The translations under genes and the position numbers were made by a program. Below are positions 3,509 to 9,301 of a DNA stretch of 43,624 nt, piece after piece. Within the stretch, counting starts at the first letter, position 1, and each line of letters begins with the position of its first letter. The stretch is from positions 1 through 43,624 of IMG/VR virus record IMGVR_UViG_2869924733_000007; one strand, 5' to 3'. The DNA comes from a virus. Its lineage: Duplodnaviria; Heunggongvirae; Uroviricota; Caudoviricetes. The notes beneath the pieces were generated by a model that had not been told where the DNA came from, ran no database searches, and was given only the letters and a program-made list of their open reading frames with translations.

Positions 3509-3902
3509 GAACACCTCCATTAATATTTTCCCAAAATGCACTTGGTTTTACACCGGAATATTCTCATCGTATCCTGCTTGTTGCGTTTCGTTTTGTGTTT
3601 GTGGATCCGGGAATGCATATTCAACGCCTTCCAGTTCAATCCATAGTGCATTACGACCAGCTTTGATTGTCGGCCAGTCCATACCTTTGATTCTTTCCCA
3701 TGAGCGGGAGGTGAATGTTTTTTCCAGCAAATCAGCTTTTGCGCGTTTGGCGTCGTTACTGGTGCCCCCATGGTGCTTGTTGAGCAACTCGATAATTTCA
3801 TCAAGTGCGATTTCTTTTGCACGCTTTTCTTTTAGCCATGAGGTAGCCTGAGTTTAACGGACACTCCTTCCTGAAATAGAATGGCATCAGAAGGAGCTAA
3901 TA

Positions 3903-4165
3903 ATGAGCAGAAAAACCCAACGTTACTCTAAAGAGTTCAAAGCCGAAGCTGTCAGAACGGTTCTTGAAAATCAACTTTCGATCAGTGAAGGCGCTTCCCG
4001 ATTATCCCTTCCTGAAGGCACTTTAGGACAATGGGTTACCGCCGCCAGAAAAGGGCTCGGTACTCCTGGTTCCCGCACGGTGGCTGAACTGGAATCTGAA
4101 ATTCTGCAACTGCGTAAGGCGTTAAATGAAGCTCGCCTTGAGCGAGATATATTAAAAAAAGCAAC
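3903..4165 (+). CDS. IS600 OrfA (IS3-family HTH), 3' end displaced by the nested IS30
   Basis: MSRKTQRYSKEFKAEAVRTVLENQ...; after removing IS30 the frame continues KKATAYFAQESLKNTR*; IS30 lies 4 nt after the A-AAA-AAA slippery run. Confidence 0.8.
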
Positions 4166-5386
4166 TGTAGATTCAATTGGTCAACGCAACAGTTATGTGA
4201 AAACATGGGGTTGCGGAGGTTTTTTGAATGAGACGAACATTTACAGCAGAGGAAAAAGCCTCTGTTTTTGAACTATGGAAGAACGGAACAGGCTTCAGTG
4301 AAATAGCGAATATCCTGGGTTCAAAACCCGGAACGATCTTCACTATGTTAAGGGATACTGGCGGCATAAAACCCCATGAGCGTAAGCGGGCTGTAGCTCA
4401 CCTGACACTGTCTGAGCGCGAGGAGATACGAGCTGGTTTGTCAGCCAAAATGAGCATTCGTGCGATAGCTACTGCGCTGAATCGCAGTCCTTCGACGATC
4501 TCACGTGAAGTTCAGCGTAATCGGGGCAGACGCTATTACAAAGCTGTTGATGCTAATAACCGAGCCAACAGAATGGCGAAAAGGCCAAAACCGTGCTTAC
4601 TGGATCAAAATTTACCATTGCGAAAGCTTGTTCTGGAAAAGCTGGAGATGAAATGGTCTCCAGAGCAAATATCAGGATGGTTAAGGCGAACAAAACCACG
4701 TCAAAAAACGCTGCGAATATCACCTGAGACAATTTATAAAACGCTGTACTTTCGTAGCCGTGAAGCGCTACACCACCTGAATATACAGCATCTGCGACGG
4801 TCGCATAGCCTTCGCCATGGCAGGCGTCATACCCGCAAAGGCGAAAGAGGTACGATTAACATAGTGAACGGAACACCAATTCACGAACGTTCCCGAAATA
4901 TCGATAACAGACGCTCTCTGGGGCATTGGGAGGGCGATTTAGTCTCAGGTACAAAAAACTCTCATATAGCCACACTTGTAGACCGAAAATCACGTTATAC
5001 GATCATCCTTAGACTCAGGGGCAAAGATTCTGTCTCAGTAAATCAGGCTCTTACCGACAAATTCCTGAGTTTACCGTCAGAACTCAGAAAATCACTGACA
5101 TGGGACAGAGGAATGGAACTGGCCAGACATCTAGAATTTACTGTCAGCACCGGCGTTAAAGTTTACTTCTGCGATCCTCAGAGTCCTTGGCAGCGGGGAA
5201 CAAATGAGAACACAAATGGGCTAATTCGGCAGTACTTTCCTAAAAAGACATGTCTTGCCCAATATACTCAACATGAACTAGATCTGGTTGCTGCTCAGCT
5301 AAACAACAGACCGAGAAAGACACTGAAGTTCAAAACACCGAAAGAGATAATTGAAAGGGGTGTTGCATTGACAGATTGAATCTACA
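4166..5386 (+). mobile_element. IS30 (1221 bp) nested in IS600, 2-bp TSD AC
   Basis: Ends tgtagattcaattggtcaacgcaac ... gcattgacagattgaatctaca; AC at 4164..4165 and 5387..5388. Confidence 0.85.
4228..5379 (+). CDS. IS30 transposase (383 aa, DDE, HWEGDL motif)
   Basis: MRRTFTAEEKASVFELWKNGTGFSEIANILG... 383 aa; identical in all five copies. Confidence 0.9.
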   Translation: MRRTFTAEEKASVFELWKNGTGFSEIANILGSKPGTIFTMLRDTGGIKPHERKRAVAHLTLSEREEIRAGLSAKMSIRAIATALNRSPSTISREVQRNRGRRYYKAVDANNRANRMAKRPKPCLLDQNLPLRKLVLEKLEMKWSPEQISGWLRRTKPRQKTLRISPETIYKTLYFRSREALHHLNIQHLRRSHSLRHGRRHTRKGERGTINIVNGTPIHERSRNIDNRRSLGHWEGDLVSGTKNSHIATLVDRKSRYTIILRLRGKDSVSVNQALTDKFLSLPSELRKSLTWDRGMELARHLEFTVSTGVKVYFCDPQSPWQRGTNENTNGLIRQYFPKKTCLAQYTQHELDLVAAQLNNRPRKTLKFKTPKEIIERGVALTD

Positions 5387-5463
5387 ACAGCGTATTTTGC
5401 ACAGGAGTCGCTGAAAAATACGCGTTAATCGAACAATGGCGACAACAATTTCCCATTGAAGCG

Positions 5464-6282: not shown

Positions 6283-7086
6283 AAAAAGAACAAATGGTAG
6301 TGTCCGCTATTGCCAGTACACCTCACCATGTCGGTGTACCGTCGTTGGCAAATAATTCACTGTTATCCCGTGAGGTATCGATGCCGAGGTGTTCACCTCC
6401 CAGGTTAAGAAACTCGATATGAGGAAGAAAGTTTTTAAATGTTGGGTTTGAAAATACCTGTCCATCAATACGGGTGGAGCGATCTTTTAGTATTCTGGCG
6501 GTGCGCCACACCTGACCGGTTTCTGTTTCTGCTTTCATTTTTATACCGGTTTTTGCCAACTGGCGTTTGCCATCATCACCTTCGAAAAAGTCATACTCAT
6601 ATCCTGCACGCCCGCACATAATAATGTGCGCCTGACTGTTAACAAATCGATCGGTAAAGCGTCGCCACTCCTGTTTGAGCCACGCCCAGTCTGAAAATTC
6701 CAGTCCTCGTTTACGGTTTCGGCGTCTGGCATACTCGTCGCATAATCCGGTCCAGAAGTGACTGATGGAGTCGATGATCATTACGGAACCGCTGCTTTCC
6801 GCTTCATTAATGGCTTCAAGCAGATCAACAAACGAGCGGGTTTTTGCCGTAAATAATTCGATATTTTCCGCATCAAAGCGGGGTTTAACCCAGTCAGAGC
6901 CTGTTTCTGTGTCCAGAAACATTACCGGGCGGTTACCAGCTTCAATTCCCCGTTGCCGCATAAGCATTACCAGACCAATAGCCAGTTCGCTTGCTGTGTA
7001 GGTTTTGCCGTCGCCAGCAAACCCCATAATTCCTGCTTTTAGATAGGCCTGTGTGTTTATTGCTCGTTGAAAAAGCGCCATAGATT

Positions 7087-7386
7087 TTAGTCCTCCAAAT
7101 CAATATCAACCTGGTGGTGGGCAATGGTTTCAGCCATGTACCGGATGTGTTCTGCCATGCGCTCCTGAAACTCAACATCATCATCAAATGCGTGGCTGAT
7201 TGCCTGTTTATTGGCACCGTGGCGTTGCAAATGGTCGATGCAGAGCGATTCAAACAGGTGCTGAGGCAGACCTTTTTCCAGGTCGTCCGCCAGTTCCGTT
7301 TCTTTTTCTTCACGAACGATCTGCTGGTAGTGGCGAGCCCATGCCATTTCTTCAATACGATCAAAAATCGGGTAAGCGCTCATCAC
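7087..7386 (-). CDS. gam: Gam-like host-nuclease (RecBCD) inhibitor
   Basis: 99-aa ORF ...[84 protein letters not shown] closely matches recalled lambda Gam C-terminal sequence. Confidence 0.6.
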
Positions 7387-9301
7387 TGGTCACTCCAAAA
7401 TTTTCAAGCTTGTTGGCAATCATCATTGCGATGTCAGGGATTGCAGGCGCATAGGCTATGCACGCAGGATTCGCACATAAACCGTAAACCGCCGCAATCA
7501 ACACCTGTTTTTTCCAGTTGAGTTCATCTTCGCCAGTTTCATTATTGCTATCATTATGCTGATCGCTGCCAGCGTTCTCCGGTAACAAATCATCAGCTTT
7601 TTCCGTTTTCTTCGGCTCTTCTTCCTGTGCTTCATCTGGTTTTTTTTCGTCAAAAGTTTCCTGATAAGTTGCGTCTCCCATCACCGCGCCACAGTCAGGG
7701 CAGTTATCCTCGCCAGTCTGATTGCAGGGTGTTCCCTCCTCCGGTTCGCTGTTCTGGTGCTGTTTATCTTCAGTCTGTCGCACTTCATTTTCCGTTTTTT
7801 TGACTTCATTTGAGGAGATATGATGACCGGGAATCCATTTCGGATCATTCGGGTCGCTAATCCCTTCAACAAATTCTCCGCGAGAGGCAGCCAGTAATTT
7901 GTCTGCATCGACAGGATTTTTGGGCGGAATGTTTTTCCGGGCTTCATGGAGTTCTGCCCGCAGTTCCTGATATTTCGCATCAACAGCATTTACCTGTGAC
8001 TGAGCATCCAGCGGCTGCGTGTCCTGATGATGTTCAGTTGCATCCGGTTCCACTGTTTCAGCCGTTGCCTGTTCATCTGCCATTGCGCAAGATGGTTGCG
8101 GTTTTTCTTCATCATCCTGTTTTCCTTCTTCTGTTACACGCTGCGGCATCGGGGCAGAGGAGCGACCGCAGGCAATATCCACGATTTCCGGATCAGGGTT
8201 GGCATGATCGGTTTCAGTCAGTACCTTGTTCAGATATTCAGTGACGTGCGCGGGGATGACCTCGATCCCAATTGGTGCTTCTTTTACGGACGCAACCACG
8301 ATGGCGCGGGAATAATCCAGCCCGCCAGGCATGGTGATGAATTTGTCGCGGAAAACAGAAAAGGGCGGTTTATTTTCAGCGATAATTTCCTCAATGCGTT
8401 TAGCGTGTGCCGGATGAAGGTTATAGATGTCCAGATCCATTGAACGGGCCAGTACGCCAGTGGCTACGTCGCGCGCCAGTGACGTCAGATCGTGTACGAA
8501 ACCTTCGCCGCGATCGGTGAGGTTTCCGCCGCCAGCATTAGCACCGGAAGCCGTGCGAGTGATGTGTGAAACACGATTACCCTTCATCCACTCTTTTGTC
8601 AGCAGTCCTCGATCGGTGTAGTCAGCGTTCAGGTATGCTTCGAAAAAAGCAGTTATCAGTCCCAGGCTTGAATTACCAGGATTAGGGAAAACTTTGTCAG
8701 TGTCACGAACCAGTTTGTGGAGATCGCGAATTTCCAGCGGGTCGAGCAGGCTGGTTTTGTGGGAAACAGCCAGGGCAGTAACAGCCGGTAGTTCTTCAGC
8801 CCGAGCAATGTGTAATGCCTGGAGTCCGTCGCGTGAAACGTGCGTTACCGGTTTTTCGCTGCCGTGTTGAGCAAGCCAGCGAATGGGCAGTTCCTGACCG
8901 GAAACTGGCAGGAGCATGTTCTCCTCAATTTCTGTCATGTCTTCGCCGTTGACGTTGGTATTGTCAGTGCTGGCTGGTTTGTCCTGAACAGAGGGAGAAG
9001 ATGCGATAAATACCATTGTGATGCCATCTTCCCCGCCTTTTTCGTAACGGTTGCAGAATTCCGTATCAAACACGCCTTCTGGCGGGAGGTCATCAACAAC
9101 GGGCAAATTGACGTGAACAGGTTTTTTAAAGTCATCTTCATCGTAGCCTGCATCGTCAATCGCAACAGCACCACGGGAGATGGCAATGGATAATTTTTTC
9201 GCTTCAGCCCAGTAAAAACCGCCTTTAATACCGAGGCGTTTTCTTACTTTGTCATTTTTTGCTTCGTAATACAGTGGGTAAACTTGTTTATCGGTGCTCA
9301 T
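7361..9301 (-). CDS. Large hypothetical early-region protein (646 aa); possibly related to the non-catalytic N-terminal region of RecE-family proteins (unverified)
   Basis: Long ORF in the early-left operon, acidic low-complexity C-terminal half with a C-x2-C motif; no nuclease motifs recognised by eye. Confidence 0.45.

Follow-up and report, generated by a model that had tools for sequence, protein, structure and literature searches.

In silico analysis of a 43,624-nt stretch of viral DNA (class Caudoviricetes; IMG/VR record IMGVR_UViG_2869924733_000007, positions 1 to 43,624), here called the window, revealed a recombination (Rec) module within the early leftward operon of a lambdoid prophage that resembles Rac, lies beside yebY, and is degraded by insertion sequences (ISs). 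The operon occupies the minus strand from about 700 to 10,900. At its center stand three minus-strand genes: a gene for a 646-aa protein related to the N-terminal part of RecE (here named RecE-N; 7361 to 9301), gam (7087 to 7386), and a gene for a P-loop ATPase, whose 5' part (6326 to 7081) and 3' part (3548 to 3838) are separated by an IS600::IS30 composite element of 2487 bp (3839 to 6325, plus strand), as delimited by its junctions relative to the uninterrupted gene. The start of gam, as read from the sequence, falls within the final 23 to 26 nt of the RecE-N open reading frame (ORF), and its stop codon is followed after 5 nt by the start of the ATPase gene.

The small protein encoded at 7087 to 7386 had been regarded as closely similar to lambda Gam in a preliminary description of the window, and profile searches bear this out. 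The protein matched Pfam Gam (PF06064) with an E value of 8.1e-56 (186.8 bits against a cutoff of 25) over profile positions 1 to 97 of 98, and PHROG 259 with 5.5e-54. When compared by phmmer with lambda GamS (PDB 2uuz/5mbv; 1.6e-50), 78 of 97 residues (80%) were identical. The length of 99 aa applies to translation from a GTG codon; probably, the protein starts at the ATG at 7383 and has 98 aa. Lambda Gam inhibits RecBCD, as is established for the family, and the Gam of the window is, by its sequence, a predicted lambda-type RecBCD inhibitor.

RecE-N matched Pfam Exonuc_VIII (PF06630; 6.2e-38), PHROG 607 (2.7e-240, profile positions 1 to 622 of 883), and positions 1 to 596 of 877 in the NCBIfam RecE equivalog NF007259, where its 1070 bits fell below the cutoff of 1269. 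Alignment with Rac RecE showed 73% identity as far as about residue 591, near a DETGE motif; residues 121 to 390 are almost identical, and the first ~100 residues are of another sequence type than those of K-12 RecE. DNA homology to Rac recE ends at position 7528 of the window, which is codon 591. A relationship with the noncatalytic N-terminal region of RecE, so far only suspected, is thereby established for some 590 residues. RecE-N has no match to PF12684 and no sequence match in the PDB, so the 3H4R nuclease domain is absent. A profile that included full-length RecEs did match 3h4r (1.6e-35) through the nuclease part contributed by the full-length rows, and sequence and profile searches with RecE-N against the PDB gave nothing beyond that nuclease domain. 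The gene that follows RecE-N is gam and not recT; likewise, the annotation of the equivalent module in the prophage of Escherichia coli CFSAN029787, the closest intact relative, contains no RecT.

Residues 391 to 590 of RecE-N contain 25.5% aspartate plus glutamate (isoelectric point of 4.3). The C-terminal half is therefore acidic, as described earlier, and is not repetitive in the strict sense. The C-x2-C motif reported before is present once, as CPDC at residue 534. The surrounding region (residues ~490 to 535, window positions 7700 to 7830) has a divergent, lysine- and glutamate-rich stretch and only three cysteines (C526, C534, and C537). At this site, Rac RecE and other tail-type proteins carry a CxxC-x8-CxxC arrangement, which is absent from P0245; this putative zinc ribbon is thus degenerate in the RecE-N sublineage of the window.

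In the place of the nuclease domain, RecE-N carries a tail of about 55 aa (residues 591 to 646, positions 7364 to 7531, minus strand) that has no Pfam match. Relatives of the protein agree as far as a conserved D(E/N)ETGE motif, beyond which they have one of three C-terminal types: a PD-(D/E)XK nuclease domain (PF12684) in proteins of ~884 aa, a DnaQ-like 3'-5' exonuclease domain (PF16473) in proteins of 814 aa, or the short tail in proteins of 646 to 683 aa. Because the same breakpoint serves the PF12684 and PF16473 C termini, the region before it can be regarded as a modular N-terminal unit. An exhaustive HMMER search of 1.84 billion representative sequences found the tail in seven clusters only, always as the C terminus of RecE-N. 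Intact ORFs of 646 to 683 aa occur at overall identities from 100% to 61% (phage 75/02 Stx, a Shiga toxin [Stx] phage) and down to 55% identity within the tail (P0247), and tail-type RecE-N is encoded by two sequenced Stx phages of Shigella, 75/02 and POCJ13. Comparison with E. coli R1 and phage 75/02 Stx yielded a ratio of nonsynonymous to synonymous substitution rates (dN/dS) of 0.13 to 0.14 in the tail, at a dS of 0.74 to 1.08. Since the ratio is this low while dS is nearly saturated, the tail is a coding segment under purifying selection and not read-through following a truncation.

In all seven prophage or phage types examined, gam stands directly after tail-type RecE-N. Usually the two genes overlap by 23 nt and are followed by bet-exo. 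The 814-aa form was seen in two E. coli prophages (4001 to 6445 of each locus), directly in front of xis-int and preceded, like RecE-N of the window, by Rha/Ash and YdaE genes; neither gam nor a gene for an annealing protein was found at its locus. Two other ideas about the tail were dropped. As a transmembrane anchor it was rejected, since a maximum 19-residue Kyte-Doolittle mean of 1.72 in a segment with several prolines is at most a hint of one, and as a degenerate start of the nuclease domain it could be aligned by MAFFT over a few residues, which was too weak.

The next gene downstream of gam on the same strand encodes a P-loop ATPase with Walker A and B motifs, neither Bet nor Exo, in agreement with the preliminary description. 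The ORF that covers its 5' part (6323 to 7081, 252 aa) has the Walker A motif GFAGDGKT at residue 20 and the Walker B motif VMIIDS at residue 100, both of which are invariant across the family, and matched AAA_24 (3.4e-14), PHROG 1366 (3.6e-67), and the Sak4-like PHROG 124 (6.7e-9). An intact gene for 365 aa (WP_001173292, annotated as "AAA family ATPase") is found in 10 complete E. coli genomes, among them that of CFSAN029787. Its product matched AAA_24 with 7.5e-14 (52.5 bits), PHROG 1366 with 1e-79, and PHROG 124 with 1e-8. On the same models, the validated Sak4 of phage HK620 scored lower (AAA_24, 5.8e-7 and 30 bits; PHROG 124, 1.9e-5), which favors the earlier suggestion that a Sak4-like protein would fit.

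An AlphaFold2 model of the intact ATPase, based on 35 homologs, reached a mean predicted local distance difference test (pLDDT) score of 86.3 and consists of a RecA-type core followed by a helical C-terminal domain. The top matches of the model in a Foldseek search against the PDB were the RAD51 paralogs XRCC3/RAD51C, KaiC, RAD51, and RadA, as expected from the RecA fold ascribed to the protein; matches among viral models (BFVD) were mostly named "AAA domain," and several were named "RecA-like (DNA) recombinase." Longer members of the family (446 to 582 aa) were scanned with Pfam for a fused SSB (single-stranded DNA-binding protein) or nuclease domain and gave AAA_24 only, and no hexameric-helicase family was detected even in these. 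Identity to the ATPase is at least 60% among the best 120 database matches and ranges from 49 to 88% among viral loci when near-identical copies are left out. The relatives that we looked at come from gamma- and betaproteobacteria, namely, Enterobacteria, Pseudomonas, Achromobacter, and Aquabacterium.

Comparison of the window with the prophage of E. coli R1 showed what the ATPase gene has replaced. On one side, gam and RecE-N are 88.6% identical at the nucleotide level, and on the other side the DUF1187 gene and xis are 95.4% identical. Between these flanks, R1 carries bet-exo-ralR and the window carries the ATPase gene only, an exact replacement in which the DUF1187 gene forms the conserved right-hand flank and the spacer between gam and the next gene is 5 nt in both types. 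This clean cassette swap between conserved flanks is one reason to regard the ATPase as the probable recombinase of the module. A further arrangement is found in the UV-induced Cronobacter phage phiES15, kil-gam-ATPase-DUF7740-dam-xis-int, with no annotated annealing protein, recombinase, or exonuclease in its early-left region.

The neighbors of the ATPase gene were surveyed in 33 dereplicated viral loci from IMG/VR, 31 of which were usable. A Gam homolog is encoded at most 17 nt upstream of the ATPase in 6 of the 31, and in a seventh locus gam lies ~1.3 kb upstream with a transposase-like ORF in between; one more protein at the Gam position looks Gam-like by eye. Four of the 31 loci have a canonical SSB gene, whose product ends in ...D(D/S)IPF, at most 12 nt downstream, and in Achromobacter prophages the start of the SSB gene overlaps the stop codon of the ATPase gene, which corresponds to the pairing of Sak4 with SSB that was shown to work in HK620 (PMC5928155). 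Within ~7 kb of the ATPase gene, none of the 31 loci encoded Bet, RecT, lambda Exo, the RecE nuclease, HK620 Sak4, or Abc2, in a screen that used few reference sequences and could not detect annealing proteins of the Erf, Sak, or Gp2.5 types. The ATPase gene was located in the early-left operon of all prophages examined, with the repressor region on one side and int on the other. This position, together with separate replication genes of the ydaU/ydaV type (ORFs at 13263 to 14798 in the rightward operon, named in the annotation of matching E. coli DNA), argues against a replication or packaging role for the ATPase. Taken together, fold, family, and position indicate that the ATPase is most probably the annealing protein of this module and would act in the manner of Sak4. 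The members of PHROG 1366 look like RecA-fold annealing proteins of an uncharacterized, larger subfamily.

Short acidic tips that contain an "IP" or a similar motif form the C termini of RecE-N and of the ATPase. In RecE-N the tip reads SDERLPDF or DDEHIPDF (window positions 7364 to 7387), and in enterobacterial ATPases it reads DENIPV, DEDIPL, or EEDIPQ (window positions 3548 to 3570). Both resemble DDDIPF, the C-terminal tail of SSB that is required in the HK620 Sak4 system. In RecE-N, the tip coincides with the start region of gam and does not occur in the 75/02 Stx type, so that constraint by gam, and not selection on the tip itself, may account for it. We give the likeness to the SSB tail little weight.

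In the window itself, the ATPase gene is split by an IS, as noticed before. Its 5' part aligns at 100% identity with the intact 365-aa gene of CFSAN029787 and its 3' part is 96.5% identical to that relative at the nucleotide level. The 3' part encodes the C-terminal helical domain and the acidic tip ...YDENIPV and is in frame with positions 6329 to 7081. The target duplication CCA is present at 3836 to 3838 and at 6326 to 6328, and removal of 3839 to 6325 along with one CCA copy restores a frame of 347 aa that ends at 3548, the left edge of the region first described. The restored frame is shorter than the intact gene by an in-frame deletion of 54 bp (site at 6515 to 6524, minus strand). Relative to the CFSAN029787 gene, this deletion between direct repeats of AGAAACCGGT takes out YEPSILIQMEKQMNIETG and with it the family-invariant residues Y190, E191, P192, S193, and M198 and a strand predicted at 194 to 202. 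Because the IS600::IS30 element splits the gene and the 54-bp deletion removes invariant core residues, the ATPase gene of the window is a pseudogene. The deletion allele is widespread, as the same 18 residues are missing from a database cluster with 825 member sequences; the deletion is therefore older than the IS insertion and has spread, probably clonally in Shigella/enteroinvasive E. coli. With 18 invariant-rich codons lost, the IS600::IS30 split, and an integrase gene split by IS630, the module cannot recombine here. It is a decaying relic in an IS-ridden, Shigella-like genome, and RecE-N and Gam are its only ORFs left intact.

We consider it probable that the region is a decayed Rec module in which a Sak4-like ATPase served as the recombinase and RecE-N is a real accessory protein. 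In an intact copy, Gam would block RecBCD, and the ATPase would anneal single-stranded DNA coated with host or phage SSB in an ATP-dependent manner, in the role held elsewhere by Bet or RecT. The nuclease-less RecE-N would be a functional, selected accessory protein that accompanies gam. Speculatively, it may carry the activity that makes full-length RecE better than the nuclease domain at linear-linear recombination.

Several observations weigh against this explanation. PHROG 1366, the best-matching PHROG, is labeled "unknown function," and an hhalign comparison of the ATPase family profile with the HK620 Sak4 sequence was not significant (probability, 0.4%), for which reason the ATPase is placed in a separate family within the Sak4 superfamily. 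Beyond the Sak4 core, the ATPase has a helical C-terminal domain of ~100 aa (helices at 269 to 339, pLDDT of ~84 to 94) and a disordered acidic tip, and it thus does not show the core-only architecture of the Sak4 class. Most family members have no adjacent SSB or Gam, and the types of annealing protein to which our screen was blind count here as well. Some retained function of the deletion allele is conceivable given its 825-member spread. As for RecE-N, whose family is confined to close relatives, AlphaFold2 gave no usable fold (mean pLDDT of 28.7 from a 23-sequence alignment), and RefSeq flags the CFSAN029787 copy as a pseudogene, "incomplete; missing C-terminus."

Part of these observations would be accommodated if the ATPase were a RecA-fold P-loop protein with another role, such as a helicase or loader, a mediator, an anti-restriction or anti-defense ATPase, or a KaiC-like switch, which we regard as rather unlikely. 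Such a role would agree with the missing functional assignment of PHROG 1366, with the conflicting annotations of distant relatives ("replicative DNA helicase," "DarB-like antirestriction protein," and "DNA helicase"), with KaiC and the RadA helicase among the top fold matches, and with the extra C-terminal domain and the lack of a significant direct match to HK620 Sak4. It is harder to reconcile with the exact replacement of bet-exo between conserved flanks and the pairing of the ATPase with Gam or SSB at distances of 0 to 17 nt. Moreover, the rightward operon already has replication genes of the ydaU/ydaV type, and no hexameric-helicase or other domain and no PADLOC match was found for the ATPase. 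Doubts about RecE-N lead to a different proposal, in which the 646-aa ORF is a dead remnant of recE left after recombination of a gam cassette and the tail is fortuitous read-through. The abrupt end of recE homology at a domain boundary would be expected from such an event, and the RefSeq flag, the loss of one cysteine of the Rac RecE CxxC...CxxC pair in the window allele, and the lack of a predicted fold point in the same direction. A remnant would hardly show purifying selection on its tail, however, nor would the tail be kept down to 55% identity, always ending full-length ORFs, and be found in the sequenced Stx phages 75/02 and POCJ13. Two other in-frame C-terminal domains, PF12684 and PF16473, also use the same breakpoint. 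On balance, we consider a dead remnant quite improbable.

A last possibility is that RecE-N, Gam, and the ATPase form one dedicated, coevolved system, for instance, a new anti-defense or end-protection machine. The trio is contiguous and tight, with a 26-nt overlap followed by a 5-nt gap, it recurs in 10 complete E. coli genomes and many Shigella genomes, and both RecE-N and the ATPase have acidic tips that recall the SSB tail. Each pair nevertheless occurs without the third member, namely, Gam and the ATPase in phiES15 and other viral loci, without RecE-N, and RecE-N and Gam with bet-exo in most relatives. Outside Enterobacteria the ATPase is found alone or with SSB, and the trio is rare, being present in 10 of 5,426 complete E. 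coli genomes. We conclude that the three genes are individual cassettes combined as a mosaic; for a dedicated system we see very little likelihood. A recombination or anti-defense module had been considered at the outset; an anti-defense role beyond the inhibition of RecBCD by Gam found no support. A PADLOC search with five proteins gave no defense-system match, its library being one of defense systems and not of anti-defense proteins.

A bolder extension of the decayed Rec module explanation is that the ~590-residue N-terminal region of RecE is an autonomous module, of which tail-type RecE-N is the free-standing form. It would act in trans, together with the annealing system encoded downstream (either Bet-Exo or the Sak4-like ATPase), perhaps through its ...DDEHIPDF tip as a mimic of the SSB tail that recruits recombinases, and PHROG 1366 would be a new RecA-fold annealing subfamily with its own C-terminal partner-binding domain. 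We put this forward as a conjecture that is more likely wrong than right by a good measure.

The remaining genes of the leftward operon follow the order of the Rac prophage (kilR-ydaE-racC-recE-recT-ralR-rcbA-xisR-intR). Upstream of RecE-N, all on the minus strand, are a Rha/Ash regulator gene (9994 to 10836; Pfam Phage_pRha and Phage_ASH), a gene for a YdaE-family zinc-binding protein (9696 to 9977; NCBIfam YdaE, 6.5e-25), and a gene for a 114-aa protein (9325 to 9669; PHROG 2434) that occupies the slot of RacC in Rac. Downstream of the ATPase gene, on the same strand, are the DUF1187 gene (3320 to 3541; Pfam DUF1187, 2.5e-36), an apparent counterpart of rcbA by DNA overlap, the excisionase gene (2932 to 3228; Pfam Exc, 3.1e-14; PHROG 629), and the integrase gene (735 to 2966), which is split by IS630 into an N-terminal fragment (2841 to 2966) and a C-terminal part (735 to 1745). 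Window positions 3270 to 3528 share 92% DNA identity with the Rac stretch that carries rcbA/ralA, and window DNA is 95% identical to the E. coli R1 stretch with xis and the DUF1187 gene of that prophage. Where Rac has the 3' third of recE (the PD-(D/E)XK domain), recT, and ralR, the window has the short conserved tail, gam, and the AAA_24 ATPase gene. The product of the first ORF in the window is similar to YebY, and related prophages adjoin yebY. In the CFSAN029787 prophage, a HigB/HigA-type toxin-antitoxin pair lies near the immunity region (12439 to 13103 of that locus); the window diverges from this relative beyond ~11045, and the HigB/HigA segment is not shared.

The IS600::IS30 composite consists of a 1264-bp IS600 into which a 1221-bp IS30 was inserted at 4166 to 5386 with a 2-bp duplication (AC), just after the A7G slippery site (1264 + 1221 + 2 = 2487). 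The IS600 part has TG...CA ends, a 3-bp target duplication, orfA and orfB, and the A7G site; the names IS600, IS30, and IS630 were taken from the RefSeq annotation of matching copies. Five copies of the nested element, 99.9 to 100% identical, are present in the window at 3839 to 6325 (plus), 15111 to 17597 (minus), 22095 to 24581 (minus), 33880 to 36366 (plus), and 40337 to 42823 (minus). Four of them have 3-bp duplications of their own (CCA, TAC, AAA, and GGA), and the unequal flanks of the copy at 33880, GTC and ACT, suggest recombination between copies. Evidently, the nested element transposes as a unit; it is presumably mobilized in trans, since the OrfAB fusion is interrupted. Two copies of IS630, 99.9% identical, lie at ~1703 to 2862 (minus) and ~20253 to 21412 (plus), with their extent taken from a comparison of the copies. 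The first of these splits int and thereby deprives the prophage of excision by its own integrase.

No function has been assigned to the N-terminal two-thirds of RecE since the protein was characterized, and full-length RecE improves linear-linear recombination and is preferred for linear-linear cloning (PMC11611040). Tail-type RecE-N is a natural, selected form of this part of RecE that could help to tell its function apart from that of the nuclease, and its presence beside Gam, Bet, and Exo in sequenced Stx phages offers a direct genetic handle. If the ATPase does anneal DNA, it would add a second, larger RecA-fold annealing type to the recombineering toolbox.

All components of the module belong to described families and are combined in a mosaic arrangement. 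Rec modules composed of an anti-RecBCD protein and an annealing protein have already been described in lambdoid phages, as have Rad51/RecA-type annealing proteins, one of eight annealing protein types in lambdoid Rec modules (PMC12315714). The combination of genes is real, and its initial description as unusual holds in a relative sense. The gene order comparison with Rac recE-recT and lambda exo-bet-gam modules proposed at that time gave a match to the Rac order, with the ATPase in the bet-exo slot relative to R1. Compared with lambda GamS, the Gam of the window agrees in length (98 to 99 aa), in 80% identity along the whole chain, and in its position directly upstream of a recombinase gene with a 5-nt spacer. 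The N-terminal residues (NAYYIQDRLEA in GamS) differ, precisely in the stretch that gam shares with the 3' end of the RecE-N ORF, and a long N-terminal extension of the GamL type is absent.

Members of the Sak4-like class are reportedly RecA core-only annealing proteins, a view said to go back to Lopes in 2010 and Hutinet in 2018. The ATPase shares with HK620 Sak4 the P-loop RecA-type core with Walker A and B motifs, the AAA_24 and PHROG 124 matches, the fold of Rad51 paralogs, and a place in an early-left recombination module beside the gene for an anti-RecBCD protein, which is Abc2 in HK620 and Gam in the window; some relatives of the ATPase also have an SSB gene directly downstream. It differs in belonging to PHROG 1366, not 2872 or 124, and in a length of 365 aa versus 226 aa, which is due to the C-terminal helical domain and the acidic tip, and the module of the window prophage has no SSB. 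HK620 Sak4 is an ATP-dependent, RecA core-only annealing protein that is stimulated by the SSB encoded next to it (PMC5928155).

RecE-N resembles Rac RecE over residues 1 to ~591 and in its surroundings, with ydaE and a gene at the racC position upstream and rcbA/DUF1187, xis, and int downstream. Unlike Rac RecE, it lacks the PF12684 nuclease, ends in the ~55-aa tail, and is followed by gam rather than recT. Lambdoid Rec modules are on record as encoding nuclease-less "RecE-2" proteins, which have been mentioned without further study and are described as only distant relatives of Rac RecE (PMC12315714). RecE-N is similar to these in being RecE related, nuclease free, and encoded in the early-left operon, and it differs in its close relationship to Rac RecE. 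Like gp06 of phage 75/02, it has the tail and is encoded immediately before gam, whereas in that phage bet-exo follows downstream and the tail has no ...IPDF tip. As in lambda Red and P22-type modules, the window combines an anti-RecBCD gene with one recombinase gene, transcribed leftward between the immunity region and xis-int, and it matches the functional class with an anti-RecBCD protein and an annealing protein and without a nuclease or SSB (PMC12315714). In contrast to those modules, its annealing candidate is of the Rad51/RecA type and not of the Rad52, Bet, or Erf type, no phage exonuclease is encoded, and RecE-N is present as an additional protein.

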